From Nitrosopumilaceae archaeon (lineage in GTDB: Archaea; Thermoproteota; Nitrososphaeria; Nitrososphaerales; Nitrosopumilaceae), in contig CBDCCK010000002.1 in the NCBI GenBank assembly GCA_965214835.1, positions 352,001 to 416,000 on the forward strand: a stretch of 64,000 nt of DNA. Reading direction: 5' to 3'. Positions 26,319-37,757 of this stretch are shown here, piece after piece. Every line of letters begins with the position of its first letter. The stretch's first letter is position 1. The position numbers were made by a program, and so were the translations under genes. A model generated the notes under the pieces. The model searched no databases, had not been told where the DNA came from, and worked only from the letters and a program-made list of their open reading frames with translations.

Positions 26319-26991
26319 GACTGCCCGTCCGGTTCTGTGTAAGATTGGTGACCTAGAATGCGGATATTCTCTGAATTGAGATTTTATTTTATGCCTAGAC
26401 AGAATACTTGCTTAGCGAGGCATTCTGGATGATGGTCTTCCACTTGTTGATGCCGTCCACGACAATCAAGGATGCCTCCGCAGGCGTCTTTCCCTCCAGG
26501 CTTCCGTGCTTTTTGGTGTAATTGTAGTAGACCCTCATTCCGTCAAGTATGGCCGTATCCATCTTCTTGAGGCCCCTGAACACCTTCTCGCGGTCTCTGA
26601 TCTCGCCGTTGAGCCTCTCCATCCTGTTGTTGTTGTCCCGGTCTCTTTTTCCTGCCAGGTGGATATGTCTTACGTGATTCGTACCCTTTCCGAATACCCT
26701 CCTTGAGGACTTGGCATATGCCGGCAGGCCGTCCGTGATGAAGTTTCTGGGGCTTTTTCCGGCATGTGATTTTGTCAGTTGTAATAGACTGTCCGCATTG
26801 TGCTGGAACTTGTTGTCTGCCAGGTCGGAGGCCAGCCAGTAGCGCGTATCGTCATCCATCGAGGCGAATAGATAGCACTGCCTGCCGCTGATTTTCACCC
26901 ATACCTCGTCGGCCCGGAACCAGCTGCCGACCCGTGGAACGATTCCGTTGAGGTATGTCGATGTCATCCTGGAATAGTCTCTAACCCAGTT

Positions 26992-28709
26992 AGACCTTAT
27001 GCGTAAACGAAATTAGCGGCGATGCCCCCGGCGCACGGGCTACAAATGAGGCAAGTCAGGGCCGGCGCACGCGCGACTGTACCTTACAACGTTGAAAATA
27101 TTTGATCAAAACCACAACTATTTTCAGACGATTGATTTAGATCCGGGATCCATTCTCGCATAAGAGTAATGGCAAAGTCCGAGACCGAGCAGATACGACT
27201 GCTGAAGAAGAGAATCGAGCAGTACGAGAAGGAGAAGGTACAGGACAGGAAGGAGAAGGCGCGGGACAAAAAGAAGATCAAGAAGTATGAGAAGAGGATC
27301 AAGAGGCACGAGAAGAAGAGCAGGCAGGACAGGAAGGAGAAGGCGCGGGACAGGACGGAGAGGATGCAGTACAGGAAGGAGATCAGAGAGTACGAGAAGA
27401 AGAGCAGGCAGGACGGCAGGAGGCAGGAGCGGGATCAGGAGAGGATAGGGCAGCTGGAACAGCAGCTGGACGCCGAGCGCCGGATGTGGCCCGCAACCTG
27501 GGATGACGACAGGCGCTCCGCGGACAACGCCGCCCTCATGCACAGGCTCGAGGTGCTCGATGACATAATCGGTGGCGGGTCCCTGCAGCCCACCACGTCG
27601 ATGAACCTCCGCCAGTTTGACTACATATATGACCGGTTTACGAAGCTTGCCAAAAAGCACACAGAAGGCCCCCTGTTCTCAGAAGACGAGGACAACTTGC
27701 CCGGAAACCGGTGCAAGCTGTCCTACCGCCACGCCCTGCTGATGTCGCTGATGCGCAAGTACGGAAACCCGACACAGGAGCAGCTTGCGGCATTCTTTGG
27801 CATAGACCAGAGCACCGTATGCAGGTACCTCAGGTATTGCGACATGATATTCACCAAGATACTGCCCACGCCGGACGCCGTATCGCGAAAGATACAAAAC
27901 GCCCGCACGATCAAGGAAGTCAAGAAGATCGTCCCGGATCTGACCGTGATTGTAGACGGCACGCACATCGACATACAGCGCCCCACAGACAAGGAGCCAA
28001 GAAAGGAGGCATACTCTGGCAAGAAGAAGAGCTTTACGCGCAACACCCAGGTGATTGCCGACAAGAAGGGACTGGCGATGTATGCAAGCAAGTCGGCGCC
28101 CGGAAGCACGCACGACCTCACCATGATAAAGAACAACCCACCGGATCTGGGAATCCTGACTGCCAGGATGCGCAGCAACAGAAAGCACCCCGAGGACGAG
28201 AAGGTAAAGATGTTCTCTGATCTGGGATACATGGGAATCGAGGAGGTGTATCCCGGGGCCACATCCGTGCAGCCCGACAAGAAGCCAAGGAAAGGCAAGC
28301 TTACAAAGAAACAGAAAGCGCAGAACAGGAGGATAAGCAGCAAGAGGGTGACAGTAGAGCACGCCATAGGACGGATAAAGCAGTACAAGCGGATGCGTGA
28401 TCCGTACGACGGGACCGCCGAGGAGTTCGACAGGGAGTTCCAGGTGACGGCCGGGCTTGCCAACTTTAGGCTGCTGTGGGACAAGCGGAACAAGAAGCTC
28501 ATGCATGGGTTCTGATACCACGATACGGAGCGCATTGCGGCGCCACACGATGCCGCACTATACTGTAGTTTTTACCAGCTGTAATGGCTCGTAGCTGCAC
28601 TATATACGGACTCTGCCGCCCTCATACACGTCATGTGATGCCGTCAGCCTTGCATGTATGGCCGGCCACCGTCGGAATATTTCGATCCGGTCGATTACGC
28701 ATAAGGTCT
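26992..28709 (+). mobile_element. IS5-family (ISL2/DDE_Tnp_4-like) insertion sequence, 1718 bp
   Basis: TIR agaccttatgcgtaa(a/t)cga (18/19), 3-bp TSD GTT. Confidence 0.92.
27169..28515 (+). CDS. IS5-family transposase (HTH_Tnp_4 + DDE_Tnp_4) with charged coiled-coil N-terminus
   Basis: LAAFFGIDQSTVCR, IVDGTH, YSGKKK, HD, DLGY, RVTVEHAIGRIK. Confidence 0.92.
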   Translation: MAKSETEQIRLLKKRIEQYEKEKVQDRKEKARDKKKIKKYEKRIKRHEKKSRQDRKEKARDRTERMQYRKEIREYEKKSRQDGRRQERDQERIGQLEQQLDAERRMWPATWDDDRRSADNAALMHRLEVLDDIIGGGSLQPTTSMNLRQFDYIYDRFTKLAKKHTEGPLFSEDEDNLPGNRCKLSYRHALLMSLMRKYGNPTQEQLAAFFGIDQSTVCRYLRYCDMIFTKILPTPDAVSRKIQNARTIKEVKKIVPDLTVIVDGTHIDIQRPTDKEPRKEAYSGKKKSFTRNTQVIADKKGLAMYASKSAPGSTHDLTMIKNNPPDLGILTARMRSNRKHPEDEKVKMFSDLGYMGIEEVYPGATSVQPDKKPRKGKLTKKQKAQNRRISSKRVTVEHAIGRIKQYKRMRDPYDGTAEEFDREFQVTAGLANFRLLWDKRNKKLMHGF

Positions 28710-29278
28710 GTTGTATACCGTCTTGTGGCTTACACTGATTCCAAGCATCTCGTAATGGTTGGAGATGTCACGGACGCTCATCCCCGTATAATACATCTGC
28801 AACGCGCCCGTTATGATGGATTCGTCAAACCTCCTGTTTTCGAATCCAAAGTTTGCAGTAAACCTTCTCTTACAGTCTTTACACTTGAACATCTGCATTG
28901 TAGAGCTTTTGTTCTTCTTTAATCCCTTCCTGACGATGTTGCCAGAATCGCAGAACTTGCACAGGTTCAGCCTTGACCTTTCAATGATTCTAAACCCGTC
29001 GTGTCCGAACACGTTTCTTCTGACATACTCCAGTATTACCTTGATGTGCTTGCAGTCCGATTTTCTGCTCCGGTGGTCCGGACACTCACAGACAAGCCCG
29101 CTGCCCGTCCTAGATACGGTATAGAACTTGGATGGATCTGACTGGGATCTGACCCTGAAATCATTCGTACCAATGATCTGGGTGGCGTGACCCGGAGTCT
29201 CCATGATCTGTTTTGCACGTCGGTCTCTTGCGTTCATTCACATCCCTCCTCGAAAATTAATATAGAACAAAAAAGAAG

Positions 29279-29363
29279 CGGTGAGTGTGGGATTCGAACC
29301 CACGAAGGCTTTCCACCTTGCAGGTCATAAGCCTGCCACTCTAACCAACTAAGTGAACTCACC
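29279..29363 (-). tRNA. Non-canonical class-II-type tRNA: anticodon UAU (Ile) with long variable arm and G73
   Basis: GGTGAGT TC ACTT AGTTGGTTA GAGT G GCAGG CTTATGA CCTGC AAGGT-GGAAA-GCCTT C GTGGG TTCGAAT CCCAC ACTCACC G. All stems pair, with an upstream TAAATA box and a downstream T-tract. Confidence 0.88.
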
Positions 29364-29450
29364 ATGTATTAGATTAACAGTATGGTTATTTATTAGTTGT
29401 GGTTAACAGATCGGTTAAGATTTATATTAGCAACGTTGCTTCAAAACAAC

Positions 29451-29636
29451 ATGACACGCTACAAAAAGGACGCAAGGGAGTTTGATGTGAGCCTCACCAA
29501 AAGCAGGAACAGGGACGGATCTGAAAGCCTGATCTGCCGCGTACCGAGAATCATAGTAGAAACACTGGGCGAGCCAAACAGCCTGAAATTCCTTATCAAG
29601 AGCAAGAACATAGTTGTGACCGCAGGTGAGAAGTGA
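29451..29636 (+). CDS. Small AbrB/MazE-like DNA-binding protein (putative regulator)
   Basis: MTRYKKDAREFDVSL...CRVPRIIVETLGEPNSLKF...IVV swapped-hairpin-like pattern. TTTATA box near 29420. Confidence 0.55.
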   Translation: MTRYKKDAREFDVSLTKSRNRDGSESLICRVPRIIVETLGEPNSLKFLIKSKNIVVTAGEK

Positions 29637-29742
29637 TGTTACCGTACCATAAGGAAGCCAACAGTAGAGATTTTGGGCAATCCAAACCAACTCGTGTTCA
29701 AACTTGTAAAAAAGAAGGCAATCATAAAAGGTGTAATCTGAA

Positions 29743-30532
29743 ATGAAAAAGTCCCTCCAACGGATATACAATACCGACTGTATGGATTTTATGAGTAGTT
29801 ATTCCGGTAAAAAATTCGATGTTATCGTCACATCCCCACCATACAACGTAAACAAGAAATACAACATCTATTTGGATAACCTGACCCTAGTAGACTACCT
29901 AAAGTGGGTGGAGTTGTGGGGGGGGGCTCTATGACCTACTTTCAGACAACGGATCATTTTTCCTAAACATAGGCTACACTGCTAAAAACCCGAACATACC
30001 GTTTGATGTCCAGCGCGTGCTGTCAAAGTACTTCAAGACGCAGAACATATTCCACTGGATAAAGTCAATATCAATACCTGAGTCAAACATATCCGTCGGA
30101 CATTTCAAGCCCATTAATACGCCACGTTTCGTAAACCAGTGCCATGAATTTGTGTTTCATTTCACCAAAAATGGTAACGTGCCTCTTGACAAACTGTCGA
30201 TAGGAGTTTCGTATGCAGATAAAAGTAACATAACGCGCTGGAACCACGGAAACACAAAACGTGACAGGGGAAACACGTGGTTCATACCATATGAGACAAA
30301 AAATGGGAATATGAGACATCCTTGTGAGTTTCCGGTCAAGCTCCCTGAAATGTGCATCATGCTACATGGCGTAAAAAACGACCTTTTTGTCTATGATCCG
30401 TTTATGGGAATCGGCTCCACGGCCATTGCGTGTAAAAGACTTGGTGTAAGGTGTGTCGGCACCGAGATAGATCCAGAGTATGTGGATGTTGCAAACCAAA
30501 GACTTGAAAACGAGGTGTTGATTTGTCAGTAG
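29743..30532 (+). CDS. Beta-class N4-C/N6-A DNA methyltransferase, frameshifted at a G9 tract (29918-29926)
   Basis: [10 protein letters not shown] in the first frame. [19 protein letters not shown] and DPFMGIGST in the +1 frame. Removing one G fuses them. Confidence 0.88.
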
Positions 30533-31074
30533 AGTTTCATAGTCTCATAAAGGACACATGCGATAAAACGGTACTGCAAACGCAAAAGAGCCATCCAATA
30601 CTGAAGATACTATCAAATGGTCTTAACATAATTCTACGAAAATCAAAATACACAAGGTATGAAGACAGGCGTATAAACGATTTAGGCAAGTCGTTGGAAC
30701 AGGAGATAAAGGACATAATAACACACGATAATGACATCAAGCTTATTCCATACAGTCAACACCTGGGTTATCCTGATCTACGTGTCCAAATACATGGTAA
30801 AGTCGTGTTTATTGAGATAAAGACAACGTCAAAAGAAGAAAATTTTGATTCAACTCAACGTGTGTTTTATTACACAAATGGCAACAAGATAAGCGACGAC
30901 GGATACCACCTACTCATACAGCTGTTCTTGGAAGCATCACCATCAAATCCAAATTCCTACATTTTCAAGAAGTGGAGGATAAGGGACCTGTATTCTCTAA
31001 GTGTAAGCCTAAAGCGAGAATACAATGCGAGCTATAGAGATTTAAACAACTTACCCGTATTGTGTGGTTCCTAG
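30523..31074 (+). CDS. Putative type II restriction endonuclease (PD-(D/E)XK)
   Basis: GYPDL...FIEIKT catalytic pattern, overlaps MTase end, AT-rich. Confidence 0.7.
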
Positions 31075-31075
31075 A

Positions 31076-31267
31076 ATGGAATGTAACAACCGCTGTGAAA
31101 AATTCAGAAAAGCTAGGAGATACAACACACAGGATTCCAAATACTGTGTTAATTGTGACATCTTTCTAGAAACCAAAAACAACCGCTGTCCTTGTTGCAA
31201 CAATCAATTGCGAACCGGGCCGGCAAACTCAAAAAACAGAAAAAACCACCGTAAAAAATCCGAATAA
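31076..31267 (+). CDS. Small Cys-rich zinc-finger protein
   Basis: MECNNRC...YCVNCDIF...RCPCCNNQLR. Confidence 0.6.
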   Translation: MECNNRCEKFRKARRYNTQDSKYCVNCDIFLETKNNRCPCCNNQLRTGPANSKNRKNHRKKSE

Positions 31268-31547
31268 ATGGCGCTGTCCAGCCACAAAAATTCATCTCAA
31301 AGATCTACACCCTAGGTGCCTAAAACTACACAAAACAGCCCGAAAGGTCAGATTGCCCAGGTATTCCTGATCCAAGCAAAATTCCATATCACCAAGATTG
31401 CACAGAACCGCCCGTCCTATACTTTTAATATGAGATATGAGAATACTAAGCAGGTGGGTAAAGTCTGTTGAGCAATCAATAGGATCTTGACCGAAACAAT
31501 GACGTCTGTTCGGACAGATAGGAAGGAGTAGGTCAAGAGTCACCATT

Positions 31548-32148
31548 AGACTTTATGATTAAAAATTCCGCAAGGTTTTCCAAGCGCAGTCGTGCTGATC
31601 AGACCAAGCTGCTGCATGCAGATGTGTCATGACGCATGCAAAAATCTGCTCATGTCAAAAAGACGTGCGCAGCCCTGCAGCACGGCCATGTGCCTTGCTG
31701 ACGAATCAGAAAAAAGGCGGCCCGTGCCGCCGTACGTTATATGTCAAGCAGGTGACCGTGGCGCCTTTTCTTTTTCAGTATCGTCTTGAGGTTCTCAAGA
31801 CCTGTAATTACCTGTATGAAATAGTTGAGATCCCTAGCGGTTCCGCCAAACGGCATGGTCAGGATGTCATATTTTTTGAGCCGCCCGATGTGGTGCACCA
31901 CCCTGACGCGCACCCTGCTTATCTGCTTACGGCGCCTCTTTTGCGTCGCGGCAAGCTCCCCGTCTCTGGGCTTCTTAGGAGGATGCCTGTTTGTGGCGTC
32001 CGGAGGCATCCTTTGAATGTCCTCAAAGCCCAAGCCGCTATAAACCACAAACGCCTTTCCCGGATCGTCTGCGTTTCCTGCGTTTTTCATTGATCTGGTG
32101 TGCCTCCCAAAAAATTTGCCAATCGAGTCTCTGATGCATTCACAGTGA
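31548..32148 (-). pseudogene. Degenerate IS5-family transposase remnant
   Basis: GLGFEDI..PPKKPRDGEL..QKRRRKQISRVRVRVVHHIGRLKKY mirrors the C-terminus of the 27169 transposase. TIR-like agactttatg at 31548. Confidence 0.75.

Positions 32149-36048: not shown

Positions 36049-37757
<1,709 letters not shown>

Follow-up and report, generated by a model that had tools for sequence, protein, structure and literature searches.

An IS6-family transposon of a Nitrosopumilaceae archaeon carries a long-arm tRNA with a UAU anticodon and a body leaning towards tRNA-Ser

Transfer RNAs (tRNAs) in which a long variable arm is joined to an anticodon that does not fit the body are already known from nematodes and soil bacteria, and their purpose is open. 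Ordinary tRNA-Ile is marked by a short variable loop, A73 and A37, and in archaea without TiaS a class-I tRNA-Ile(UAU) reads AUA codons. The ProX tRNAs of Streptomyces reportedly work with a dedicated synthetase. Among the mismatched tRNAs, the bacterial allo-tRNAs occur mostly in Acidobacteria and carry UAU as their commonest anticodon (Mukai et al., 2017; PMC5389517). The eukaryotic nuclear nev-tRNA-Ile(UAU) are class II tRNAs, conserved within their lineage, whose anticodon UAU belongs to neither Ser nor Leu (Hamashima et al., 2012, 2015; PMC3333845, PMC4300185). Here we describe an archaeal tRNA gene that joins a UAU anticodon to a long-armed body and lies inside an IS6-family transposon. 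It was found on the minus strand, at positions 29279-29363, of a 64-kb stretch of DNA from a Nitrosopumilaceae archaeon (the window; coordinates count from its first letter, and C2 is the label of a host genome contig).

The tRNA resembles canonical archaeal tRNA-Ser in its long arm, G73, the G30-C40 pair, a 9-base D loop and a Ser model score above the Leu model score, and possibly also in the unpaired bases that flank the variable stem, one on its 5' and two on its 3' side. It departs from tRNA-Ser in its anticodon, which is UAU rather than GCU, NGA or GGA, and in its Ser model score (67.2 bits against 81.8-108 bits). With the tRNA-Ile(UAU) of archaea that lack TiaS it shares only the anticodon, whereas TiaS is present here and the tRNA is of class II with G73. 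Like the allo-tRNA(UAU), which sit near mobile or toxin-antitoxin genes and are suspected of a missense or a non-translation role, it combines a Ser-type long arm with UAU; unlike them, it divides its acceptor and T stems 7/5 rather than 8/4 or 9/3 (PMC5389517), is archaeal and is enclosed in a well-delimited IS6 transposon flanked by a target duplication. The nev-tRNAs, which are leucylated in vitro, differ from it in that the window tRNA has G73 and is the cargo of a mobile element (PMC3333845, PMC4300185). As in the Streptomyces tRNA-ProX, body and anticodon specify different amino acids (PMC10404621), but the host genome holds a single seryl-tRNA synthetase (SerRS; gene at C2:472011-473201), with Seryl_tRNA_N and a class-II core in one frame of 449 amino acids (aa), and a search of that genome for a second one found none. 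No archaeal long-arm tRNA other than Ser or Leu, and no tRNA cargo of an IS6 element, was reported in the full-text literature searched outside supplements and subscription journals, including passages of a paper that surveys elements integrated into thaumarchaeal genomes (PMC6563490). The present case is archaeal, with a standard cloverleaf, a cleanly bounded IS6 carrier and sister copies with other anticodons.

The gene is the only tRNA that ARAGORN predicts in the window (29278-29363, minus strand, anticodon tat). Rfam RF00005 matches 29279-29363 (minus strand) over the full model length with 59.6 bits (gathering threshold 29; E 2.3e-10), one of 58 such matches in a host genome of 3.22 Mb and 52.6% GC, and the family model R1, introduced below, gives 91.1 bits. 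The 85-nucleotide (nt) RNA is of class II. Its acceptor stem GGTGAGT/ACTCACC forms 7 of 7 pairs, the D stem ACTT/GAGT forms four pairs, one of them G-U, around the 9-base D loop AGTTGGTTA, and G26 precedes the anticodon stem GCAGG/CCTGC. The loop CTTATGA is of the standard 7 nt and contains U33, U34-A35-U36 (the anticodon, at 29327-29329), G37 and A38. A variable region of 16 nt, AAGGTGGAAAGCCTTC, folds into a stem of 4-5 base pairs (bp), AAGG(T)/(G)CCTT, and is followed by the T arm GTGGG-TTCGAAT-CCCAC with a standard T loop and by the discriminator G73; CCA is not encoded. All 21 to 22 stem pairs are intact, and U8, A14, G15/C48, G18 G19, T54 T55 C56, A58 and G30-C40 are all present. The cloverleaf, arms, loop and G73 that the earlier note had read from the sequence are therefore all there, by ARAGORN, RF00005 and our own reading. 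That the variable arm might be an intron was considered and rejected, since it is a plain bulge-free hairpin whose excision would leave 2-3 bases, and since the arm covaries across the family (3 of 3 pairs, 100% paired).

Candidate expression signals flank the gene. A TAAATAA box at 29386-29392 (minus strand; -29 to -23 from the tRNA 5' end) may serve as an archaeal TATA element, and a comparable A/T box lies at equal distance in the host paralogues x2806 and x702. Downstream, a run of six T at 29269-29274 (minus strand), five bases past G73, is a candidate archaeal terminator; the trailer cttctttt is common to the window tRNA and x702. Both the box and the oligo-T tract had been proposed beforehand and stand where they were said to be. 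The interval between the tRNA and the transposase ATG holds a conserved leader, tatattaattttcgagg..., at 29238-29264 (minus strand), a candidate promoter and ribosome-binding site of the transposase, which was recognised by alignment with x702, x2806 and two tRNA-less transposase copies and also occurs 3' of family tRNAs in other genomes.

The carrier is a 5,079-bp transposon that spans 26331-31409, with the tRNA inside it. IS6-family elements have terminal inverted repeats beginning GGTTCTG and an 8-bp target duplication. The element fits these end traits: reading of the end motif places a right inverted repeat, GGTTCTGTGTAAGATTGGTGA, at 26331-26351 (plus strand) and a left one, GGTTCTGTGCAATCTTGGTGA in minus-strand reading, at 31389-31409 (minus strand), and comparison of the flanks gives the target-site duplication GCCCGTCC at 26323-26330 on the right and, as a perfect match, at 31410-31417 on the left. 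Because the end motif is inverted at 26331 and 31409 and identical 8 bases lie outside each copy, the whole of 26331-31409 was inserted as one unit, of which about 3,360 bp are older than an insertion sequence (IS) that arrived later. Right ends of paralogous transposase copies share GGTTCTGTG(Y)AAT..., a motif present 49 times in the genome. The transposase itself is in two parts. Its N-terminal part, with a zinc-binding and a helix-turn-helix region (28695-29237, minus strand), matches NCBIfam transpos_IS6 and the IS1/IS1595 zinc domain below their cut-offs; this open reading frame (ORF) is cut by the inserted IS, from which its last residues derive, and tblastn finds full-length paralogues. 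The C-terminal DDE part (26395-26967, minus strand) matches Pfam DDE_Tnp_IS240 above cut-off (E 4.6e-15) and NCBIfam transpos_IS6 with 71.3 bits, under the 125-bit equivalog cut-off. The inverted repeats, the target duplication and the DDE_Tnp_IS240 transposase bear out the earlier note's description of the tRNA as transposon-borne. Whether the tRNA belongs to the fixed make-up of this IS6 family was considered and rejected, as none of the 29 loci of the closest transposase homologues carries it; ordinary tRNAs lie near three of them.

The anticodon is not an assembly slip. Contigs, not reads, of four public runs were aligned to 29100-29700. In run X1, which is perhaps the source of this DNA, a 919-nt contig shows 0 differences, and in run X3, from a different study, a 2,181-nt contig covers 29317-29700, anticodon included, again with 0 differences. 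Diverged copies retain the anticodon as well: X3 record 15 and X7 record 22 show 9 differences over 29321-29393, and X8 record 27, at a depth of only 4.9, shows 24 differences and one gap over 29207-29393, with none listed at 29327-29329 in any of the three. Within the tRNA the diverged copies differ at 29359, 29351, 29347, 29318, 29314 and 29311. On our mapping, 29347 falls in the D loop and 29314 and 29311 in the variable loop, and the other three are stem changes that all preserve pairing: A5>G, facing U68, at 29359; U13>C, facing G22, at 29351; and A46>G, facing a U, at 29318. The worry that UAU is a sequencing error is thus answered by an identical contig of an independent study and by copies 9 and 24 differences away that keep it. 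A search of the runs listed none of RNA, which speaks neither for nor against transcription.

The RNA also appears to be under selection, as had been supposed. In 7 of 7 family pairs the identity of the tRNA exceeds that of 150 bases of either flank, and the diverged copies keep anticodon and pairing. The two copies of genome G144 are 0.90 identical in the tRNA, 0.58 in the upstream and 0.79 in the downstream flank; the corresponding values are 0.89, 0.50 and 0.46 for the pair G014/G041, and 0.68, 0.52 and 0.60 for the UAU copy and x702. An alignment of 24 matches has 95.9% of its cells paired, with 20 of 24 pairs changing on both sides, which 0 of 500 shuffles reach; this alignment includes unrelated tRNAs and is fitted to the model, so that it demonstrates the tRNA fold only.

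Which synthetase such a body would address depends on its Ser and Leu features. In Methanosarcina barkeri both types of SerRS recognise G73 as a strong determinant and G30-C40 as a weaker one, and SerRS ignores the anticodon, whereas in Haloferax volcanii Leu identity requires A73 and specific variable-arm bases and the G73 of tRNA-Ser is an antideterminant for leucyl-tRNA synthetase (LeuRS); t6A37 is a determinant for bacterial-type isoleucyl-tRNA synthetase (IleRS) (PMC9976931). The UAU tRNA has the archaeal tRNA-Ser marks, namely the long variable arm, G73 and G30-C40, without a Ser anticodon. Its 9-base D loop matches Ser rather than Leu (11 bases). The tRNA lacks the A73 of all three host Leu tRNAs found, with which it shares G37. 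From tRNA-Ile it has the anticodon, but not the class-I body, A73 or A37; the host tRNA-Ile(GAU) is a 75-nt class I molecule. Plain pairwise identity failed to separate Ser from Leu, and home-made covariance models were used instead, Ser from 5 canonical tRNAs and Leu from 4, three of each from the host. On these the UAU tRNA scores 67.2 bits (Ser) and 44.6 bits (Leu), the GAA sister 75.7 and 43.3, x702 54.2 and 33.2, and the archaeal UAU locus L150 78.1 and 50.0, compared with 81.8 and 48.4 for the held-out host Ser(GGA) with its intron and 56.9-66.7 and 105.8-111.4 for canonical Leu tRNAs. The Ser model outscores the Leu model in 20 of 21 non-canonical long-arm tRNAs (13 family members, 7 archaeal UAU tRNAs and L064), the exception being L091; two GAG and two UAA tRNAs with G73 give near ties. 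In a class-wide scan with R1, all 12 checked loci outside the family are tRNA-Ser (7 GGA, 5 GCU). Judged by these sequence features, the UAU tRNA stands on the Ser side, without the margin of a true Ser tRNA. The Ser-like body claimed by the earlier note holds in class, G73, G30-C40 and the ranking of the models; its Ser score only reaches that of the best canonical Leu tRNA on the same model.

Our leading reading, put forward tentatively, is that the gene makes a charged, low-level missense tRNA, most likely serylated by the host SerRS. The TATA-like box of the gene would start transcription and the T run would end it, and host enzymes would mature the RNA and add its CCA. By extrapolation from other archaea, charging with serine by the host's single SerRS would be most likely, because archaeal SerRS recognises G73, the long arm and G30-C40 irrespective of the anticodon, while G73 blocks LeuRS and G73, G37 and the long arm are foreign to tRNA-Ile. 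On these rules LeuRS and IleRS would find it a poor substrate. If serylated, the tRNA would compete with the TiaS-made tRNA-Ile2 for AUA and cause low-level Ile-to-Ser missense; any benefit would fall to the mobile element, not to the host. Were this true mistranslation, mobile elements could change how a frequent codon is read in the cells that carry them.

Several observations weigh against such a role. AUA is common in the host, where ATA makes up 34% of Ile codons in 716 long ORFs (21.6 per 1000 codons), and in the cargo of the element, where it makes up 13 of 18 Ile codons in the unnamed ORF 30523-31074 and 11 of 16 in the C-part of the methylase (3 of 22 in the transposase halves), so that efficient Ser insertion at AUA would harm both. 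The element is decaying, with its transposase split by another IS and its methylase frameshifted, and the loci of the closest transposase homologues carry no such tRNA (0 of 29). The Ser score of 67.2 bits is about that of a canonical Leu (66.7), true Ser tRNAs score 81.8-108, and the models rest on 5 and 4 sequences. Plain identity puts the host Leu(UAG) nearest among canonical tRNAs, and the two anticodon arms are alike apart from a single loop base and a shorter stem register in the UAU tRNA. Finally, six allo-tRNA-UAU variants were inactive as amber suppressors in E. coli (PMC5389517).

Sister copies place the gene in a wider family, with other anticodons and links to several kinds of transposase, which the earlier note had not noticed. 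The two host paralogues share its order of elements, an A/T box, the tRNA, a T-rich trailer, a tatattaattttcgagg-type leader and the transposase ATG. Paralogue x2806 (C2:2806142-2806225) has the loop CTGAAAA with anticodon GAA and G73 and is followed by an IS6 transposase gene with one TAG. Paralogue x702 (C2:702318-702405) combines G73 with a loop of 6 nt, CTGAAA; the leader behind it terminates in GGGCCACG, after which comes GTACGAGGTCAC, the end of an IS or miniature inverted-repeat transposable element (MITE). A transposase copy at C2:657881 has the opposite end of the IS type found at x702, followed by GGGCCACG and ATG, and the two sequences suggest that the x702 tRNA and this transposase were formerly adjacent. 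GTACGAGGTCAC had been tried as a mark of tRNA-specific elements and was rejected as the end of an abundant IS or MITE with 111 sites.

The covariance model R1 was built from seven family members, with the family line at 72 bits. The three host copies score 91.1, 83.6 and 73.8 bits, and after them among the host tRNAs come Ser(GCU) with 68.0, Ser(UGA) with 66.5 and Leu(UAG) with 61.0 bits. Across 151 genomes of the same family-level group such tRNAs occur sporadically and in a minority only (some genome tallies include the unpublished genomes G077, G092, G093, G305 and G344, on which no named result depends). G000 has three family-type copies with IS6 neighbours; G014 has a GAA copy with a 14-nt intron at 37/38 and an IS66 transposase upstream; G041 has a GAA copy with an intron, adjacent to an N6_N4 methylase-HNH fusion; and G063 has two degenerate copies, with an intron. 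G144 holds two GAA copies, both followed by IS1595-family transposase fragments, and its unit shows homology, at 77.6% identity, that starts 55 bases before the tRNA and continues through the transposase. G033 has a GAG copy with A73 and a weak acceptor stem beside a T2SSE secretion-type ATPase gene, G020 a GAA copy with A73, and G059 two GAU copies with an N6_N4 methylase neighbour. These GAU tRNAs (L062:3001-3089 and L069:1948-2033, 76% identical) both have C33 instead of the universal U, with the loops CCGATAA and CCGATGA. Looser relatives with G73 carry CAA in G059 (R1 69.0 bits, below 72), UAA in G144 and G065, and GAG in G018 and G039. Family members thus adjoin IS6, IS1595 or IS66 transposases or DNA methylases, and three of them retain an intron at 37/38. 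Examination of the neighbourhoods across loci by Pfam and pairwise comparison found no partner protein common to them. Every anticodon found has A35, the family anticodons being GAA, GAU, GAG, CAA and UAU, and UAU occurs in only 1 of the 151 genomes. A35 would follow from either ancestry, since a single substitution at position 35 turns the Ser anticodons GGA, GCU, CGA and UGA into GAA, GAU, CAA and UAA, and Leu anticodons already have A35.

Long-arm UAU tRNAs also exist in other archaea. A pattern scan of one genome per species (CTTATRA, 17-32 bases, GGGTTCRAATCCC) matched at least 118 stretches, 80 of them given as loci, and among these listed matches ARAGORN calls tat-anticodon tRNAs at 24 of the 80 loci. 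At least seven are archaeal long-arm UAU tRNAs, from Methanoregulaceae (L079), an uncultured archaeon (L085), Iainarchaeum (L091), an Asgard metagenome-assembled genome (L098), Thermoplasmatales (L102), Methanoperedens (L127) and Nitrosopumilus (L150); all have G73 and five have G37. The bacterial matches listed include Acidobacteriota. At L079 an intact 394-aa DDE_Tnp_IS240 transposase (Pfam) lies 325 bases 3' of the tRNA on the same strand, and at L150 an IS6-type end, GGTTCTGTGTAATCTT, begins 8 bases past the tRNA and is followed by an IS6 transposase fragment; Pfam, run on six of the seven archaeal loci, found no transposase among the tested neighbours of the other four. Look-alikes beside the same transposase family thus occur in methanogen-type and marine ammonia-oxidiser-type archaea. 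The earlier note had suggested looking for homologues in the same IS6 context; long-arm UAU tRNAs recur beside IS6 transposases at L079 and L150, and the sister copies carry GAA. Many Thaumarchaeota matches of the pattern were discarded as false, being intron-bearing tRNA-Lys(CUU) or tRNA-Leu(UAA) genes. In metagenomes, a scan that fixed the anticodon stem but left the anticodon free gave 80 listed loci that are chance matches; ARAGORN calls one tRNA among them, an unrelated tRNA-Gln, and the single TAT match listed is not a tRNA. Behind the IS6 transposase of L079 (L079:4554-5493, minus strand) lie a SocA/Panacea antitoxin-domain gene and an unnamed 119-aa ORF, likely a toxin-antitoxin pair.

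Such neighbourhoods lend some substance to the best-surviving alternative, in which the RNA is made but acts outside translation, as a tRNA-shaped decoy or substrate for tRNA-directed enzymes, as a regulator or as a processing signal. We consider this somewhat unlikely, if attractive on several counts. Family members stand repeatedly by transposases, DNA methylases and, at L079, the SocA/Panacea gene; the cloverleaf is kept across diverged copies; Ser at a common codon would be costly; and the family shows oddities, namely C33 in both G059 GAU copies and the 6-nt loop of x702. The allo-tRNA-UAU offer a parallel, as they lie near transposon and toxin-antitoxin genes, their six variants were inactive and their authors suggest no use in translation (PMC5389517). 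However, the window tRNA itself has a standard 7-nt loop, U33, the universal tertiary bases and a standard T loop, anticodons are kept in sub-lineages, the three introns at 37/38 fit ordinary tRNA maturation, and the loci have no conserved partner protein.

A broader form of the missense reading can be framed from the same family. We speculate that archaeal transposons (IS6, IS1595) spread serine-accepting long-arm tRNAs retargeted to hydrophobic NUN codons (Ile AUA, Ile AUY, Phe UUY and Leu) as deliberate mistranslators, either as a payload that acts like a toxin or manipulates the host, or as a weapon against competing elements; as a general account this seems to us unlikely. The copies form a tractable natural set of variants for asking whether such tRNAs are charged and used, and why UAU recurs.

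Decay provides another explanation, namely that a Ser or Leu tRNA gene was captured by the transposon, its anticodon drifted and its function was lost. The broken carrier, the 6-nt anticodon loop of x702, the degenerate stems in G063 and G033 and the restriction of UAU to 1 of 151 genomes would all suit a neutral relic, and most family anticodons are, on our own reading, one change from a Ser or Leu anticodon. This is nevertheless improbable for the window copy: all of its 21 to 22 stem pairs are intact, copies 9 to 24 changes apart keep anticodon and pairing, the tRNA is more conserved than its flanks in 7 of 7 pairs, and long-arm G73 UAU tRNAs occur in at least seven other archaeal lineages.

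That the gene might encode a true tRNA-Ile, which would read AUA without agmatidine and aid translation of the ATA-rich cargo, is very unlikely in our estimate. The anticodon matches AUA, ATA is enriched among the Ile codons of the cargo (13/18 and 11/16 against 34% in the host), and the cargo is AT-rich (40.9% GC, compared with 51.8% for the window). Yet G73, G37 and the long variable arm are unlike the A73, A37 and short loop of tRNA-Ile, and the host is equipped for AUA. As the earlier note had advised checking, tiaS is present (one PF08489 (TiaS_FLD) match of 110.9 bits in a 450-aa open frame; among the controls only the four archaeal genomes were positive), together with three CAU tRNA genes, one of them initiator-like, and the UAU tRNA is therefore dispensable for AUA. 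The suggestion that it supplements AUA decoding is weak, with AUA already at 34% of host Ile codons. The sister copies carry GAA, an anticodon that a normal tRNA-Phe of the host already provides, so that codon supply fails to explain the family.

Charging with leucine as in the nematode nev-tRNAs, with a mild Ile-to-Leu exchange at AUA, could draw on anticodon and T arms close to host Leu(UAG), the nearest tRNA by plain identity, on UAU being one change from UAG or UAA, on G37 as in Leu tRNAs and on the leucylation of nev-tRNA-Ile(UAU) in vitro (PMC3333845, PMC4300185), but it is the least probable of these accounts, given G73 against A73 in all three host Leu tRNAs found, G73 as antideterminant and A73 as determinant for the H. 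volcanii LeuRS (PMC9976931), the 9-base D loop (11 in Leu) and the Leu model at 44.6 against 67.2 bits for Ser.

The remaining cargo of the transposon comprises two genes and the later IS. An N6/N4 DNA methyltransferase gene at 29743-30532 (plus strand) is frameshifted into overlapping frames, 29743-29934 and 29903-30532, the second of which matches Pfam N6_N4_Mtase (E 2.9e-27); both parts match NCBIfam methyltransferase models, all below cut-off. It adjoins the ATA-rich ORF of 183 aa at 30523-31074 (plus strand), for which Pfam and NCBIfam searches gave no family match. A PD...E-x-K-like stretch read by eye would make a restriction endonuclease possible; of the earlier note's statement on this gene the count of 13 ATA in 18 Ile codons is right, whereas its naming as an endonuclease finds no match in either database. 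The IS that splits the transposase (26991-28709, plus strand; 1,719 bp) has ends TAGACCTTATGCGTAA and a DDE_Tnp_4 transposase ORF at 27169-28515 (Pfam E 1.7e-27). Fifteen further full-length copies of it, at 99% identity or more, lie in the genome, a number that suggests a recent burst.

Outside the element, Rfam matches a DUF3800-X RNA at 31452-31545 (plus strand; 52.2 bits against a gathering threshold of 38.2), which starts 35 bases beyond the left target duplication; the ORF downstream of it, 31629-32093, belongs to no Pfam family. A 5' ureB small RNA match at 37316-37608 (plus strand; 46.1 bits against a gathering threshold of 40) leaves many model pairs unpaired and may merely reflect conserved urease coding sequence.

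The host genome contains further tRNA-like genes. Four of 72 nt share one body, at C2:66616-66687 (minus strand) and C2:2234423-2234494, 2756709-2756780 and 3019690-3019761 (plus strand), with the anticodons AAG, GAA, AAG and GAG, respectively; each is preceded, at a distance of about 50 bases, by an incomplete duplicate of the D arm and anticodon arm, in which the anticodon-arm sequence co-varies with the gene that follows. A second long-arm tRNA-like family, of about 95 nt, occurs at C2:182875, 1090321, 1824008, 1826707 and 2887467 (and 914323), with G after the acceptor stem, GAU, GAA or CAG loops (A35 again), shared flanks and RF00005 scores of 30-48 bits. The motif GTACGAGGTCAC (for example at C2:702445 and C2:657891), which belongs to a MITE of about 95 bp and to one or more IS elements some 1.7 kb long, is found no more than 60 bases from three odd tRNA-like genes. 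Lastly, C2:1726841-1726941 (L233), called a tRNA-Ser(cga) with an intron by ARAGORN in intron mode, is more likely an intron-bearing tRNA-Leu, because it scores 78.8 bits with the Leu model and 47.1 bits with the Ser model.

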